IMG/VR virus record: IMGVR_UViG_3300045988_162656
DNA: 64,000 bases
Reading direction: 5' to 3' (one strand)
DNA from: a virus
Lineage: Duplodnaviria; Heunggongvirae; Uroviricota; Caudoviricetes
The notes under the pieces: generated by a model
Database searches by the model: none
Seen by the model: the letters and a program-made list of their open reading frames with translations, nothing else
Told to the model about the DNA's origin: nothing
Shown: one piece after another, positions 1,358 through 50,438 of the stretch
Position numbering within the stretch: position 1 is the stretch's first letter
Layout of the letters: each line of letters begins with the position of its first letter
Translations under genes and position numbers: made by a program

Positions 1358-1379
1358 AGGCGGTGCATTGCACCGCCTA
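1358..1379 (+). terminator. GC-rich hairpin directly after mrp stop (aggcggtgca / tgcaccgcct); no clear T-tract
   Basis: inverted repeat read directly from sequence. Confidence 0.4.
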
Positions 1380-1389
1380 ATCAGTTCTC

Positions 1390-1779
1390 CTACATCACAG
1401 GACAATCATCAAACTCGCCACTTCTTGCGTCGTTGATAATGTGAGTGATCACACCAAACACGGCATTGCTGCCCGTGCATCCATCGTCATCCTTTGGCAA
1501 TGCTTCCTTCTTACCGGTTCTTAAATCCTCCAGATGCTGACGTGGAGACTTCCGGTATCTTTTTACGCGATATTCCCCATCCAGAGCGCATACAAGCAGA
1601 GAACCATCAACCGGGGTAAGTGAGGAATCAACCACCAGCAATGCACCCTGTAATATTCCCTCACGATGATGACTATCAGCTGCTCTCATGAAGTAGGTCG
1701 CTGAAGGATGTCTAATTATCTGCTGATCAAGAGAAATACGGCTCTCAGCATAATCCGCCGCAGGAGAAGGGAAGCCCAT
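1390..1779 (-). CDS. UmuD-like S24 peptidase-domain protein (orphan, no umuC partner in window)
   Basis: 129 aa; GFPSPAADYAESRISLDQQIIRHPSATYF closely parallels UmuD; Ser and Lys of the catalytic dyad region retained (DSH ... VKRYRK). Confidence 0.6.
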   Translation of the reverse strand: MGFPSPAADYAESRISLDQQIIRHPSATYFMRAADSHHREGILQGALLVVDSSLTPVDGSLLVCALDGEYRVKRYRKSPRQHLEDLRTGKKEALPKDDDGCTGSNAVFGVITHIINDARSGEFDDCPVM

Positions 1780-1794
1780 AGCGTTTTGCCCTCA

Positions 1795-1814
1795 ATACTG
1801 TTCATTTACACAGT
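1795..1814 (-). promoter_or_regulatory. LexA (SOS) box upstream of the UmuD-like gene
   Basis: tactgttcatttacacagta fits CTGT-N8-ACAG with flanking TA; lies 16-35 nt upstream of the ORF start. Confidence 0.55.
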
Positions 1815-1951
1815 ATACATGAAAGAAGCTCACTCAGTGCAACTGATCGGTACATAGCACCAGACAAAGGAACGTTATTTTCTCGAACAAGAAAAGGTAG
1901 AAAACAAATTGTTTAAGGCCACAACTAGTGGCCTTAATGGAGAAGGGATGC

Positions 1952-36997: not shown

Positions 36998-38071
36998 TTA
37001 CTCTTCTACTGACTCGGTGGGGTTGTCTTTTGCTCTTCGGTCGTCGATTGCCTGCAAAGCCGCAATGATTTCAGCCAGTGGCTTCTCCCGATACATCTCG
37101 ACGATCTGCGATTTGGTGTATTTCTTGTCACCAATTTCAACTCGCCCGCTGGCGTTCTTTGGCAGGTATCCTTCTTCCAGCATGTACTCGACGAGCGATT
37201 CGATAACGTCGAGGCCACGAGTAGGATCGAAGTAGAATTTCCAGGTGCATTTGCCATACGGTGGTGCAACTTTGTTTTTGATGCATTCTGCGCCTACGTC
37301 CTGGCCGATCTTCTCTTTACCATCCTTCATCACCGATGCACCAAGACGGATACGTACAGAAGCGTAGAACTTCGGTGAATCTCCACCTGGAGACGTAGTA
37401 GGGTCGCCAAACATTACACCGATTTTTGTGCGAACCTGATTCAAGAAGATGATGCAGGCGTTGTATTTGCGTGCCCACAAAGCCAGAGTAGGGAAGTTCG
37501 CACTTGTCGCACGAGCCAGTGCCGTATTGTCGTTCATGTTTAGCTGATCTTTGTCTTTGGCAGTGCCTTCAGCCATCTTTTCGAACTTCTCGGCTTTGGA
37601 GTTCGGAACCATAGACGCAAGTGAGTCAGCCACGATACAGATAGGTGCTGATTCAGGAATAAGCTCTTCATCACGTACCAATTTAAGAATTGTGCCGATC
37701 AACTCTACAGAGTCTTCGAAGGTATCAGGCTGCTTGTATACCCACTGACCGTCATCCTCATCTGCATTCAAACCATTGGCTACAGCCAGGCCAACGTCAA
37801 AACTGTTCTCATGATCGAGGAATACCGCCAGACCATCTTGTTTCTGTGCGGAGATCATTGCTGCCGTTGCCAAAAAGGTTTTCCCCGCGCTTGGTGGCCC
37901 GAATACTTCTACGATACGACCACATGGGAAACCGCCATCGTAACGACCGGAAATCGCTTTGTTTAACGGAGGAAAGCCTGTGTCAATCCAATGAGTTACT
38001 TTCTGAATTTCGTCGTTGCTACCGATTTTCTTTTTCAGAGCAAGTGCCAGTGCGGATTTTCCTTTTGCCAT
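36998..38071 (-). CDS. RecA/UvsX-like recombinase
   Basis: Walker A GPPSAGKT and RecA-fold core; 357 aa. Confidence 0.8.
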   Translation of the reverse strand: MAKGKSALALALKKKIGSNDEIQKVTHWIDTGFPPLNKAISGRYDGGFPCGRIVEVFGPPSAGKTFLATAAMISAQKQDGLAVFLDHENSFDVGLAVANGLNADEDDGQWVYKQPDTFEDSVELIGTILKLVRDEELIPESAPICIVADSLASMVPNSKAEKFEKMAEGTAKDKDQLNMNDNTALARATSANFPTLALWARKYNACIIFLNQVRTKIGVMFGDPTTSPGGDSPKFYASVRIRLGASVMKDGKEKIGQDVGAECIKNKVAPPYGKCTWKFYFDPTRGLDVIESLVEYMLEEGYLPKNASGRVEIGDKKYTKSQIVEMYREKPLAEIIAALQAIDDRRAKDNPTESVEE

Positions 38072-41047: not shown

Positions 41048-44000
41048 TCACGTCTTAATGGTTTCTGCTACGTCGGCTAATATCGCTTCTAGTCGTTCTC
41101 CCTCTTCAGGTCTGAAGTAAAGAATGTTGGGGTTAAACCCGTAAAAGACAGTAACGTCAAGGTCTGGAAGGTACTCCTTCCTGCCGACCAAATCGGATGG
41201 CTTGTTTTTGTTGTTAAACAATGCCGTTGCCCGGCTGCCACACGTCAGCACATAGGTCGGACGCACCAGATTGATCTCTTCACGTATAAAGTCGGTGAAC
41301 TGGCCGATCTCGTCTTTGGTGTAGTCTTTTTCTTTGTCTTTAACCTTCTTGCAAACGCCTGTGACATAGAGATCGCCCATGCGTAAATCTCCAGCCGTCA
41401 ATAGCTTGGCCTTAAAGTCGTCGTATCCGTTCTCCATAAAGTAACCGGTTCGAGCATCATTGCCGTTCGCATTGTCCAGAATGATCATGATTTTCGGCTT
41501 AATGCCAATGCTAGGGCGGATTAGTTCATCACCTAATCCCATTTCAGCCGCCATCCGTGTCATGAGCACGTTAATCTCAGCCGAACGTTTGGGGTTCATC
41601 TCAAACGGACGTGAGGCTTTAACTGCGTCTATGACAAGGTTTCCCATCAATTCAGCCTGGTCGCGGAGACGCTCTGGATCAGTTGCTGGCAGACTACCTG
41701 GCTCGATGGATGCAAACGCACCTACTTTTTGCAGTGATTCGCGCACTCGACTATTACAGGCACGTTTCTCGACAGCTTCTTCGAATTGCGCCAGTGACTC
41801 GAATTTGCCGCCAACTTTTTCTCGCGCTCTCATGATGGCTTGGCAGCCATTCTCAGAACACCCTTTCACAGCAGAGAAGGGCGCATACAGCACCTGGCTG
41901 CCATCTTCAAGCGTGCGGATCTCGATTCGGTTAGATGACACGTTAACGTCTGGTGGCAATACGCGAATACCATAGGTCAGCGCATCTTTAACCAGCCCCT
42001 GGTGTTTATCTTCGCCAAGAATAGTGAGAGCAGCAGCGAAGAACTCCGCGGGATAATGAGTTTTCAACCACATAGATTGATAACTGATTAAGGAGTAAGC
42101 AACAGAGTGTGATTTGTTGAACTGGTAGGCACCATTCTTTTCGAATGCGGTCCAGATCTCCTTCGCTTTCATCTCTGATAGCCCTGGATGTGACGCTGTA
42201 ACGCGTACTGCGTTTATAGGTAGTTTTGCGCCGTACTCAAGTGCCTCTTCGACAGTTTTCAGAGTTCCGTCTTCGCATTTAAAATGTTCCGCACGGTGAA
42301 TGCGCTGTGTAGTGCCATCTTCCAGCTCAACGTCTATCCAGCCAGCTTGAGCCTGAACGATGAACTTCTCGCCCATGCTCTTCATTTTTTCCATGTCTTT
42401 TTTGCCGATCGCTTTACGAACGCCGTCAGCTTCAGCCATTGTGAAGCCAGCAAGCAATCGAGTCGCGTTCATCGTCTGTTCCTGATAGAGAATCACGCCA
42501 TTTGTTTCTGCGGTAAGTTCATCAAGAACGGGGTGTAATGATTCCGGCGTCATAAAGCCTTTGGCTACAGAAACATAGTCATCCAACATGCCTGACTGAA
42601 TTGGCCCCGGCCGGAAGAGCGCAGTCGTAGCAACAACCGTTTTAAAGCTCATTGGCTCAATTCCACCACCTAAATCTTTAAGCAGCTTGCGCATTGGGCC
42701 TGATTCAAGCTGGAAAACACCTTGAGTGTACCCAGCAGCAAAACCATCCAGCACCTTGCGATCTTCAAGAGAAATGGCATCAAGATTGATATCTTCACCT
42801 GTGTTCTCTTTTATGTAGCGTTTTGCACTATCGAGCAAATCGAGAGTTGCCAGACCAAGTACGTCCAGCTTAATTAGGCCCATAGCCTCGCAGTAACGCT
42901 TGTCAAATGCGATACAACGCGCGTCACCACGGCGTTCAACCGGTGTACGTTCTGTCAGAGGAACACCTGCTACGATCATCCCTGCCGCATGTCTACCAAA
43001 GCCACGCATAAGACTTTGTAACTTGCAGGCAGCATTGAATGCATCAGGGTATTTTGTCGCGTATTTGTCGAGACTTGCCAGTTGTTCGCGCAGCTCCTCC
43101 AATGGAAGGCTATCATCCTCGACGTTCTTCAGCTCTTTTGATACCGCCATATCTGCGGACTCCACACCATAAATACGAGCGGTATCACGTAGTGCTGAGG
43201 CTGCGCCCAGGTAGGTGAAGTTCGGAATGCCTGCAACGTAATCTTCGCCGTAGCGTTCATTCAGATACTCGATCACCTCATGGCGACGTGCCTGGCTGAA
43301 GTCCAAGTCCGCATCCGGCAAGTCGAGACGCTCAGGGTTGATGAAACGCTCAAACAGAAGACCGTGACGGATTGGGTCGACGTTGGTTATGCCTATGCAC
43401 CACGCCACCAGAGAACCGGCAGAGGAACCACGACCAGGCCCGACAGGAATGCCAGTTTCACGGCTGTGATTCATCAGATCGCGTACCATCAGGAAGTAAC
43501 CACAAAATCCCAGGCGAGTCAGCGTGTCCATTTCGTACTTTAGCCGCTCAACATAAACCCTGTTCTCAGAAGCAGGTGGTGTGTAGCCAAACTCTTTTGT
43601 GGTAAGACGTTTACGCAGCCCTGCAACAGCCAGTTTCATAAGCGTTGCAGGCTCGTCGTCTGCCATCTTTGGCAGTGCTGGTGGCAATTCATGCCAGCGC
43701 CATGTGCAGGCATCGATAATGGTATCCTGCGTTGTTGAGGCCATTGCAGCTGTTACCGGCACATCCATGCGAACGGAGAAGGTTTTCAGCGCCTCAAGGA
43801 GATGGCGGCGACCATTGACGGCGTTATCTCGCTGGTGGGGGATACGCAGACGATGCGGCTGGTCGATTTTGATGTTGTTCGTAACCATGTGCGCAATGTC
43901 TTTAATGTCTGCATCGTCGATCGATTCGTAATAAGCGGGATAGAACGCCACTGGCTCTATTTTCAATGCGCTGGCGACTTTCATCGCCCGGACGTTAATC

Positions 44001-44566
44001 TGGTCGTAGAATGGGGTAGGGTGCGGATAAACCACACTATAGAAGTTGTCTTTTCCACCCGCTGTAATCAGTGTGCTTATGATTTTTGCAAAATCGTTGC
44101 GTTGGAACACGCTACCGATGTCGGAAGTGAGCAGGATGATGTTGCCTTTGGCATATGTAGAAACCAACTGTTCGAGCGAGAGACGCGGTACAAAGTAGAA
44201 CTGTTCTCGTGTGTTGGCCACCGTCATTAGTTCGCAGATGTCGCGATATCCTTGCTCATTTTTAATTAGAGCGGTAAACGAGTAGTTACGTCCTCGCTCT
44301 AATGATTCCATACATCCCTTAGACTCTTTAGCAATTTTAGCCCGGTACTCGTATGTGGGATCATCAACAATGTTTAGTTTCACACCACAAATAACCGCCA
44401 TGTCGTCACCAGCGGCACGTTGTAGTGGAATAACACTCGCAATATTCATGCTATCTGCCGAAATTACAGCGGTGTAGCCAGCTTCTCTGGCAATCTTCAC
44501 CGCGTTTTCTGCTTTTAGAGCCGACTCCCCAAGAGAGAAGTCAGTTCGAACCATCAGAGCCTTCAT
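41048..44566 (-). CDS. dnaE: DNA polymerase III alpha-type (DnaE-like, PHP domain) replicative polymerase
   Basis: 1172 aa; N-terminal PHP domain, polymerase core motifs, length typical of DnaE. Confidence 0.8.
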   Translation of the reverse strand: MKALMVRTDFSLGESALKAENAVKIAREAGYTAVISADSMNIASVIPLQRAAGDDMAVICGVKLNIVDDPTYEYRAKIAKESKGCMESLERGRNYSFTALIKNEQGYRDICELMTVANTREQFYFVPRLSLEQLVSTYAKGNIILLTSDIGSVFQRNDFAKIISTLITAGGKDNFYSVVYPHPTPFYDQINVRAMKVASALKIEPVAFYPAYYESIDDADIKDIAHMVTNNIKIDQPHRLRIPHQRDNAVNGRRHLLEALKTFSVRMDVPVTAAMASTTQDTIIDACTWRWHELPPALPKMADDEPATLMKLAVAGLRKRLTTKEFGYTPPASENRVYVERLKYEMDTLTRLGFCGYFLMVRDLMNHSRETGIPVGPGRGSSAGSLVAWCIGITNVDPIRHGLLFERFINPERLDLPDADLDFSQARRHEVIEYLNERYGEDYVAGIPNFTYLGAASALRDTARIYGVESADMAVSKELKNVEDDSLPLEELREQLASLDKYATKYPDAFNAACKLQSLMRGFGRHAAGMIVAGVPLTERTPVERRGDARCIAFDKRYCEAMGLIKLDVLGLATLDLLDSAKRYIKENTGEDINLDAISLEDRKVLDGFAAGYTQGVFQLESGPMRKLLKDLGGGIEPMSFKTVVATTALFRPGPIQSGMLDDYVSVAKGFMTPESLHPVLDELTAETNGVILYQEQTMNATRLLAGFTMAEADGVRKAIGKKDMEKMKSMGEKFIVQAQAGWIDVELEDGTTQRIHRAEHFKCEDGTLKTVEEALEYGAKLPINAVRVTASHPGLSEMKAKEIWTAFEKNGAYQFNKSHSVAYSLISYQSMWLKTHYPAEFFAAALTILGEDKHQGLVKDALTYGIRVLPPDVNVSSNRIEIRTLEDGSQVLYAPFSAVKGCSENGCQAIMRAREKVGGKFESLAQFEEAVEKRACNSRVRESLQKVGAFASIEPGSLPATDPERLRDQAELMGNLVIDAVKASRPFEMNPKRSAEINVLMTRMAAEMGLGDELIRPSIGIKPKIMIILDNANGNDARTGYFMENGYDDFKAKLLTAGDLRMGDLYVTGVCKKVKDKEKDYTKDEIGQFTDFIREEINLVRPTYVLTCGSRATALFNNKNKPSDLVGRKEYLPDLDVTVFYGFNPNILYFRPEEGERLEAILADVAETIKT

Positions 44567-48746: not shown

Positions 48747-49133
48747 ATGTCTGACAAAAACATTGAATTTATAGAAAGTCGCTATGCTGCTTTTATCGCA
48801 GGGCTGATTGAATCCTCACCTATGAGTCAGGCCCAAATAGCCAGACTTATTGGTTATAAAAATGCCAACAACCTTTCTTTAATTAAAAGTGGTAAAATTC
48901 CTTTGCCTATCGATAAGGTTCGTCCGCTGGCGTTGGCGCTGGGTATTGAGCCAAGTCGTCTTATGATGATGGTGCTGGAAGAACGCCAACCTGAACTCGC
49001 AGCATTTTTATACAAAGAAGGCACCGCTCCTCTTAACGAGGACGAAAAACAGGTTCTTGCTGCATATAACGAGCGATTCGGTAAAGAGAAAGGCGCATCA
49101 CAAAAGGTTGTTGAGGCCATAAAGTCTCTATGA
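48747..49133 (+). CDS. XRE-family helix-turn-helix transcriptional regulator
   Basis: HTH segment SQAQIARLIGYKNANNLSLIKSG; convergent with integrase; AT-rich promoter region upstream. Confidence 0.55.
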   Translation: MSDKNIEFIESRYAAFIAGLIESSPMSQAQIARLIGYKNANNLSLIKSGKIPLPIDKVRPLALALGIEPSRLMMMVLEERQPELAAFLYKEGTAPLNEDEKQVLAAYNERFGKEKGASQKVVEAIKSL

Positions 49134-50231
49134 AAAATTTAGACGAATAAGCTCTGTTGATAGACGATCTCCCTTGAATTTGTGGTCAATTTCGTCTAAA
49201 TCCGGTTGCTCTACGATTGATGCGATGTACGTTGAGAAACTTTCTAAGGCGTCTCGCATCTCGTCCATATAATCGTGCCGGTCGTAGACCCGATCTATCC
49301 CCTCAAGACTGTGGTTCATTATTTTGCGTGATACCTCCTGGCTTATACCTAATGCTGGGAAGTAACTACGCGCAGTACGACGCAAATCTCGAGGTGTAAA
49401 TGGCGCAAGCTCCATCAGTTCTGGTCGTTCCAGAATACGACGTAATGCCTGGGCTATTGCCACTTTAGACATAGGAAGGTCTTTCCCGATTTTTTTATTC
49501 GAAGGCACGAGCCACTGGCTGTCTTTACCGTATTCGAACAACTCTTCAATGCATGTGCGCATTAATGTGCTTAAAGGCAGCGAATGCTCACGTGCTGACT
49601 TGTTTCTCTTGCCTTGATTCCAAACTCCACGCTTAAGATTGAACTCACTTTTTTTAGCCCTCAGTACTTCGTCAGGTCGTCTTGCTGATACAAGACACAG
49701 CCTGGCCGCCCATTTTGTACCAGCGCACACATTGAAGTAGTCCCATATATTCCAGAACACCCATACCTCTGCGTCGGTCAGCTTCCGCTCGCGAGGTGTG
49801 GGCTTTGCGCCACCGGCAACTTTGTTTAGTGACATATCGTTTAACGGTGACACGTCTATCATCCCCTGGAAGGCGCACCAGCTAAGGAACTGCTTCATCA
49901 GAGAGAAAACGCGGCGGCCCATAACAATTTTGCCATCCAATATTAGAGGGTTGACCAGTTGGTTAACCATGAACCTATTAATGTCACTTACTTTTACATC
50001 AGCAATGTGCGGCAAAACATGTATCAAAATACAATGAACAGCGATCTCTGGCCGACGTCTGGTTATCAGCAGAGATAAGCGAGTGAATAACATGAATGCG
50101 TCCGAGAATATCATGTTATTGTTGATCTGTGAGATCATAATGGCCTGCATTTGAGATGCTCTTTCGAGATACTCAATTGCCTCTTTTGAGGTGTTTTCTG
50201 CTGCGCGTGCTCTGTCAAAGCTATTTTTCAT
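49128..50231 (-). CDS. tyrosine site-specific recombinase / integrase
   Basis: C-terminal catalytic region with TPRDLRRT and HSLEGIDRVYDRHDY motifs. Confidence 0.8.
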   Translation of the reverse strand: MKNSFDRARAAENTSKEAIEYLERASQMQAIMISQINNNMIFSDAFMLFTRLSLLITRRRPEIAVHCILIHVLPHIADVKVSDINRFMVNQLVNPLILDGKIVMGRRVFSLMKQFLSWCAFQGMIDVSPLNDMSLNKVAGGAKPTPRERKLTDAEVWVFWNIWDYFNVCAGTKWAARLCLVSARRPDEVLRAKKSEFNLKRGVWNQGKRNKSAREHSLPLSTLMRTCIEELFEYGKDSQWLVPSNKKIGKDLPMSKVAIAQALRRILERPELMELAPFTPRDLRRTARSYFPALGISQEVSRKIMNHSLEGIDRVYDRHDYMDEMRDALESFSTYIASIVEQPDLDEIDHKFKGDRLSTELIRLNFS

Positions 50232-50438
50232 TTATTGGCATTCACCTAGTTACGCTGATCACCTGTATAAGTAACCAGTATATTAGGCATTGATTCTTTT
50301 GGAATCAAGCTAAAATCTTTCATGCGGAAAATGATTCCATACCTAAAGAGTATGGAATCATTTTTTTCTGTAGAGCTAGTTTTAAATATTTGATTCGATA
50401 TGAAGCCAGGCAATTTCATGCCTGGCTGTTACTTTGTG

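Follow-up and report, generated by a model that had tools for sequence, protein, structure and literature searches.

The stretch of DNA analyzed here, referred to below as the window, is 64,000 nucleotides long. At 1390-1779 on its minus strand lies an open reading frame with an ATG start that encodes a 129-amino-acid, UmuD'-sized protein of the S24 fold, identified as humD from the open reading frame list, the NCBIfam model NF051876, and a match to the UmuD' structure 1UMU. Pfam Peptidase_S24 covered residues 1-79 with an E value of 1.4e-9, PHROG 811, "UmuD-like protein," matched with an E value of 6e-54, and the equivalog NF051876, "HumD family translesion DNA polymerase," scored 218.7 bits against a cutoff of 120, with residues 1-129 aligned to profile positions 1-129. 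The model for UmuD of the UmuD/MucA type (PRK10276, NF007621) gave 87.8 bits where 110 are required, and the score with the LexA model was 27.9 against a cutoff of 110.95, with only the C-terminal part of that model covered. The S24 domain stands alone in the product, which lacks the N-terminal DNA-binding domain of the LexA- and CI-type S24 repressors. An earlier note on this DNA had described a UmuD-like S24 protein, and the Peptidase_S24, NF051876, and PHROG 811 matches bear that description out.

The closest relatives found by tblastn, at 100 to 97.7% identity, were in the SSU5-like phages CMS-2020a, Cyrano, and PhiR41_1. The annotated humD genes of P1, P7, D6, RCS47, and SJ46 followed at 90.7 to 92% amino acid identity (91% for P1), and N15 gp26 and phiKO2 gp23 at 69 to 71%. 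In the NCBI annotation pipeline, close copies already go by the name "HumD family translesion DNA polymerase." A comparison of humD with the P1-type copies gave a dN/dS of ∼0.05 at a dS of ∼0.68, pointing to strong purifying selection and thus to a gene that is no fragment. The pseudogene fragment that the earlier note had allowed for is not what was found, because this ratio is joined by a full-length match to the family model.

The 2.1 kb around humD are 100% identical to two circular E. coli O104:H4 plasmids of ∼109 kb, p09EL50 and the FDAARGOS_348 plasmid, and 98 to 99% identical to phage genomes such as that of Cyrano, which is an SSU5-like phage-plasmid (PMC9928086). The p09EL50 annotation lists phage head, tail, and terminase genes together with RepB, ParB, dnaE, a RecA-like gene, a DnaB-like helicase, and a ligase, and also nrdAB, thyA, dfrA51, tRNAs, metG, and apbC. 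Compared with p09EL50 (NC_018651.1, position 93900), ∼1.2 kb is missing between the window start and 62743, and the window therefore comes from a closely related but nonidentical phage-plasmid. In the window, positions 1-1352 hold a divergent metG-apbC pair that is arranged as on the E. coli chromosome. The apbC of the element is ∼83% identical to the chromosomal apbC, which is found in essentially every E. coli, and apbC at 95% identity or more occurs in 215 records, about equal to the 220 plasmid matches. Thus, humD lies inside a circular replicon, and metG and apbC belong to the phage-plasmid. A chromosomal prophage integrated next to mrp/apbC was rejected in view of the plasmid matches, the p09EL50 annotation, and the ∼83% apbC identity. 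The location at an element boundary that had first been proposed was an artifact, since housekeeping paralogs, metG and apbC, were taken for chromosome. In Cyrano, apbC (CYRAN_99, annotated as MinD) is expressed 9-fold above the prophage background.

A large replication and repair toolkit accompanies humD on the element, comprising nrdAB, thyA, dfrA51, a ligase, a DnaB-like helicase, a RecA-like gene, and dnaE. By size and position, a 1,172-amino-acid open reading frame at 41048-44566 on the minus strand corresponds to the p09EL50 dnaE (Pol III alpha). A diverged RecA-like protein is encoded at 36998-38071, also on the minus strand, and scored 153.7 bits with TIGR02012, below the cutoff of 325. 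Between 3340 and 6170, again on the minus strand, successive small open reading frames overlap via near-identical junction sequences; they start with motifs such as ...(A/R)(S/E)KES(D/E)M(T/A)T..., and the C-terminal motif ...IRIKGE is shared by two of them. Such a pattern points to a module for recombination or translational coupling that is repeated among Ea22/DUF551-type genes.

The humD product differs from a full-length UmuD at its N terminus. In the structure-database alignment to the UmuD' structure 1UMU (E value, 5e-23), Gly2 of the query falls on UmuD' residue 1, which is UmuD Gly25, and the reading frame is not extendable upstream because an in-frame TGA lies four codons 5' of the humD ATG. 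Starting at the equivalent of Gly25, the product therefore lacks the arm and the Cys-Gly cleavage site and would be made in an already "cleaved" form; the open reading frame list and the alignments to the structure and to relatives agree that no N-terminal arm and no Cys(Ala)-Gly site is present. The protein is thus predicted to be a pre-activated UmuD' analog and not, as had been proposed, a self-cleaving one. The N-terminal sequence MGFPSPAA was found in all 79 viral copies, and all located viral and genomic copies begin with Met-(G/A)FPSP, in a set for which the search pattern MGFPSPAA was part of the selection. All relatives from the viral-contig scan were at least 91% identical; the more divergent ones come from a scan of species-representative genomes that was seeded with the peptide MGFPSPAA and so cannot prove that every relative is N-terminally truncated. 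Extensions from GTG or TTG codons, which a "first start after stop" rule assigned to some relatives, were judged spurious, and starts were taken at the conserved ATG.

Ser36 and Lys73 of the humD product align with the catalytic dyad of UmuD, Ser60 and Lys97. Among relatives of 50 to 72% identity, the first of these columns holds Ser in 9, Thr in 15, Met in 3, and Pro in 2, and the second holds Lys in 17, Arg in 12, and Met in 2. The dyad thus appears to be free of family-wide constraint, as would be expected of a family in which autoproteolysis has become dispensable. Within the humD clade itself the dyad is kept with no obvious substrate, and a model of HumD as a simple UmuD' surrogate leaves this unexplained.

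Upstream of humD, an unstranded LexA operator (SOS box) occupies 1796-1815 and reads TACTGTTCATTTACACAGTA, or TACTGTGTAAATGAACAGTA on the gene strand; it was recognized from its arms, its position weight matrix (PWM) score, and its conservation. The interval between box and ATG is exactly 16 nt (1780-1795). The earlier note had placed a consensus-grade SOS box 16 nt upstream, at 1795-1814; the site and its distance were confirmed, but the coordinates were one base off, and the description as consensus grade holds for the arms and not for the spacer. Indeed, the 12-base arms of TACTGT-N8-ACAGTA are matched exactly, with the remaining matches in the window having 2 mismatches each, and the idealized 20-mer TACTG(TA)5CAGTA has no match in the window at up to 3 mismatches, the humD box differing from it at 4 positions that all lie in the spacer. 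In a PWM built from known E. coli SOS boxes, the training sites of which score 13.0 to 25.9 bits, the box scored 20.3 bits, within the training range and higher than any other site in the reconstructed plasmid of ∼108 kb. This "whole plasmid," which was also used in the polymerase searches described below, is a composite of the window and p09EL50 flanks.

The loose pattern CTGT-N8-ACAG matches once in the 64-kb window, at the humD box, with 0.9 matches expected by chance, and by itself this match is not significant. A chance palindrome next to a decaying, 5'-truncated umuDC remnant would fit that expectation, the missing first 24 umuD codons, and the missing umuC. Against such a remnant stand the full-length match to the HumD model, the low dN/dS, the Met-(G/A)FPSP start common to all located copies (within the pattern-selected set described above), and a PWM score above the maximum in all 200 of 200 shuffles. 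The evidence that speaks most strongly for a box beyond chance is comparative. Of 80 viral-contig loci fetched, the open reading frame was located in 79, and all 79 carry a CTG-N10-CAG box 16 to 19 nt 5' of the ATG; 15 variants of the box sequence occur, and nearly all of the differences among them fall in the spacer, with the arms kept. A pseudogene and a chance palindrome are excluded by these conservation data, and a remnant of this kind is extremely improbable.

The sequences around the box suggest how it might act. A Shine-Dalgarno-like GAGGG lies at 1789-1793 on the minus strand, 9 nt before the ATG, and its GAGG is conserved in P1 and in related loci. On the same strand, a candidate -10 hexamer, TATACT, at 1812-1817 overlaps the left arm of the LexA box, and a candidate -35 hexamer, TTGCAC, lies at 1837-1842 with a spacer of 19 nt. 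Both hexamers were proposed from conservation: TATACT is conserved across five otherwise unrelated upstream contexts, and TTGCAC or TTTCAC occurs at a matching distance in four of them, with the similarity between contexts beginning at about 1837-1842. A sigma-70 consensus scan 5' of humD reported no promoter; TATACT escaped it owing to the 19-nt distance from the -35-like hexamer. We infer a weak humD promoter with a -10 hexamer that would be occluded by LexA. An intrinsic terminator (1358-1378, minus strand) with a 9-bp stem, 7 G-C pairs, and a T run follows directly after the humD stop codon and falls in the gap that humD shares with the convergent apbC. A terminator-like hairpin at 1913-1937, minus strand, between the upstream toprim-domain gene and the LexA box, would shield humD from read-through. 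With terminator-like hairpins on both sides, humD looks like a one-gene unit.

The system most like this one is that of phage P1. The P1 HumD likewise has 129 amino acids, starts at the UmuD' N terminus, ends in an equal C-terminal tail, and has no umuC partner, and P1 humD has the same TACTGT-N8-ACAGTA arms upstream, at 19 nt from the ATG in P1 and 16 nt here. Relative to P1, the window has a 3-bp deletion between box and ribosome-binding site and one base change in the box spacer. Both phages are maintained as plasmids, but P1 is a myovirus and the element of the window an SSU5-like siphovirus phage-plasmid. The flanks also differ, being a toprim gene and apbC in the window and lxr and phd-doc in P1. 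The P1 operator is shared with the divergent lxr, whereas the operator in the window has no such lxr; the P1 genome record annotates the homologous site as "LexA binding site in the regulatory region of lxr and humD." Homology to P1 at the DNA level extends from ∼60 nt 5' of the ATG to the stop codon and takes in only promoter and box, ribosome-binding site, and coding sequence. Because the similarity is confined to it, the operator-gene unit behaves as a mobile cassette that has been transferred between phage-plasmid lineages of unrelated descent. By its exact arms and PWM score, the humD box classes as an E. coli-type SOS box, and by analogy with the P1 HumD locus it would be expected to bind LexA.

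Published accounts of P1 (PMC7092418, PMC9603915) define humD by this combination of orphan status and a LexA box. Substitution for UmuD' in vivo and binding to UmuC and to RecA filaments are known for P1 HumD from PMC7092418, and the UmuD' substitution also from the P1 record, which states that HumD "functionally complements E. coli UmuD'"; these biochemical properties are taken from secondary citations and notes in the P1 record. The 91% identity of P1 HumD leads us to expect LexA binding at the operator and, for the humD product, dimerization, interaction with UmuC and RecA, and complementation of UmuD'.

More distant relatives have a similar design. N15 gp26, phiKO2 gp23, and HumD-like proteins of prophages (HK140, HK639, BTP1, and others) are UmuD'-sized orphan S24 proteins that start with MGFPSP. 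Many of the genes stand alone as cassettes, each with its own terminator and with one LexA box or a tandem pair 13 to 19 nt upstream, and N15 gene 26 is such a boxed, terminated, one-gene unit. The proteins of this group are 50 to 72% identical to the HumD of the window, and many lack residues equivalent to Ser60, Lys97, or both; some of the genes lack a box, their translation being coupled to that of the gene upstream. Among enterobacterial HumD-like loci in the species-representative genomes, many have one or two LexA boxes, and no umuC was found within 3 kb. The absence of a partner gene, on which the first description of humD as an orphan was based, is therefore real but not unusual, since it recurs in P1, N15, and many enterobacterial prophages. 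In loci of Citrobacter, Klebsiella, Kluyvera, and others with 57 to 72% identity (L089-L093, L101, L102, and L113), tandem LexA boxes lie ∼43 and 19 nt 5' of the ATG, with the proximal box degenerated to CTG...CCGG in L089, L090, and L113.

E. coli UmuD/UmuD', with which the plasmid proteins MucA, ImpA, and RumA are grouped as Pol V accessory subunits, shares with the humD product the S24 fold, 42% identity over UmuD residues 25 to 139, the dyad positions, and, as predicted for humD, LexA regulation. However, UmuD has a 24-residue arm that must be cut at Cys24-Gly25 on RecA* for activity, and its gene is cotranscribed with umuC, whereas the humD product has neither the arm nor a partner gene. 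A UmuD'-sized protein with a polymerase partner was seen in a Chitinophagaceae metagenome-assembled genome (locus L116, 3001-4595), in which a 117-amino-acid open reading frame starts with MGFPSPAADY, has no upstream extension, and lies directly 5' of a umuC homolog with 42% identity to E. coli UmuC. Unlike HumD, this pre-truncated UmuD' is in an operon with its polymerase. The protein and locus in the window show all the HumD-family features that could be checked, and the features of an autoproteolytic UmuD (arm, cleavage site, umuC operon, and a score above the model cutoff) are absent.

The absence of a umuC-type partner from the window, reported at the outset, was confirmed and extended. 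No UmuC homolog was detected by tblastn at an E value of ≤10, noise aside, in the 64-kb window or the rest of the composite plasmid, no DinB homolog was detected by tblastn in the same sequences, and the RefSeq annotation of p09EL50 contains no Y-family polymerase. An adjacent umuC just outside the window, which had been held possible, was likewise not found on the composite plasmid. A chromosomal umuC is present in 5,423 of 5,426 complete E. coli genomes, and the umuC of the host is the likely partner. Modulation of a polymerase encoded elsewhere, one of the two roles first suggested for the gene, is what P1 HumD, 91% identical, is documented to do and would by analogy apply here.

On this basis, the following sequence of events can be proposed. 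In an undamaged cell, host LexA bound to the box that overlaps the likely -10 hexamer would keep humD off. DNA damage would lead to RecA-stimulated cleavage of LexA and thereby to humD transcription. The product would already have the UmuD' form, and RecA-mediated self-cleavage would not be needed. A HumD dimer would then join the UmuC encoded by the host chromosome and, with RecA and ATP, form a Pol V-type translesion polymerase. The slow UmuD-to-UmuD' step would be bypassed, with damage tolerance and mutagenesis as the outcome for the lysogen and for the DNA of the element.

Host UmuC need not be the sole partner, since DnaE and a diverged RecA-like protein are encoded on the element itself. 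HumD might act mainly with these, modulating the replisome of the element after damage in the way that UmuD and UmuD' bind Pol III subunits. The gene content of the element is compatible with such a role, as it encodes dnaE, the RecA-like protein, the DnaB-like helicase, a ligase, and a ribonucleotide reductase; P1 humD adjoins hot, a homolog of Pol III theta, and the umuD products bind Pol III alpha, beta, and epsilon, as cited in PMC4713147. However, a 91% identical cassette is present in P1, which has no DnaE or RecA, and related cassettes are found in N15 and in small lambdoid and P22-like prophages. Because the cassette occurs in phages without DnaE or RecA, the partner that has been conserved must come from the host. 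In addition, the annotation of P1 HumD states that it complements UmuD', and no covariation or linkage of humD with dnaE or recA was seen. We consider it unlikely that HumD acts mainly with the proteins of the element, and a pre-cleaved subunit for host UmuC remains the preferred reading.

A second LexA-type box, ACCTGTATAAGTAACCAGTA, lies at 50261-50280, 29 nt 5' of a tyrosine-recombinase gene (49128-50231, minus strand), and scores 18.7 bits. It is the second-best PWM match and the sole other strong LexA-type site in the composite element. The recombinase gene is convergent, with a 6-nt overlap, to a helix-turn-helix gene at 48747-49133 on the plus strand that is a "putative repressor" by the Cyrano annotation. 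A CTG-N10-CAG box is present 24 to 29 nt from the recombinase gene in 68 of 71 related viral loci, usually with better arms than here and with a varying spacer, and in these loci it abuts a promoter-like pair, TTGAT(C/T)-17-TAATAT. The sigma-70 consensus scan found no promoter 5' of the recombinase gene, and the promoter proposed there comes from conservation only. Judged from sequence, the box at 50261-50280 is a candidate SOS input for induction of the SSU5-like phage-plasmid and a more plausible SOS-sensor site than humD.

This second site bears on the other role first suggested for humD, a link between DNA damage and induction. HumD could take part in the lysis-lysogeny decision as an anti-repressor-like or decoy S24 protein, or by titrating RecA* or host UmuD. 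The gene would be under SOS control, and the related phage-plasmid Cyrano was induced 39-fold by ciprofloxacin (PMC9928086). Yet HumD has neither a DNA-binding domain nor a cleavage site, phages whose immunity systems are unrelated carry the cassette (C1/Coi in P1 and CB/AntC in N15), and the conserved LexA box at the tyrosine recombinase promoter is the better-placed SOS input. The induction link is thereby disfavored, and we rate a role of HumD in lysis-lysogeny as very unlikely. The two operators could also be taken together, humD being one arm of an element-wide mini SOS regulon of which the operator at the recombinase promoter is the other, with HumD perhaps also working with the DnaE or RecA-like protein of the element, or its dyad acting in trans on host UmuD. 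This extended reading seems improbable to us; if HumD did work with those proteins, or its dyad in trans, HumD would do more than stand in for UmuD' alongside host UmuC.

The feature is very probably an ordinary copy of humD, that is, a gene for a P1-type pre-cleaved UmuD' subunit that is induced by damage and uses host UmuC, carried as a one-gene SOS cassette in an SSU5-like phage-plasmid. For P1, humD has already been described as an orphan gene that is controlled by LexA and encodes a truncated, pre-activated product. The main value of the analysis lies in correcting the first reading: the protein is predicted not to be self-cleaving, and instead of marking an element boundary, humD lies within an SSU5-like phage-plasmid that has its own metG and apbC. 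Matches to the 2.1-kb humD region at 80% identity or more are present in 819 of 5,426 complete E. coli genomes (∼15%), mostly on plasmids. Given this frequency, SOS-inducible, cleavage-independent activation of Pol V would be a common mobile trait, of possible relevance for stress-induced mutagenesis and the evolution of resistance.
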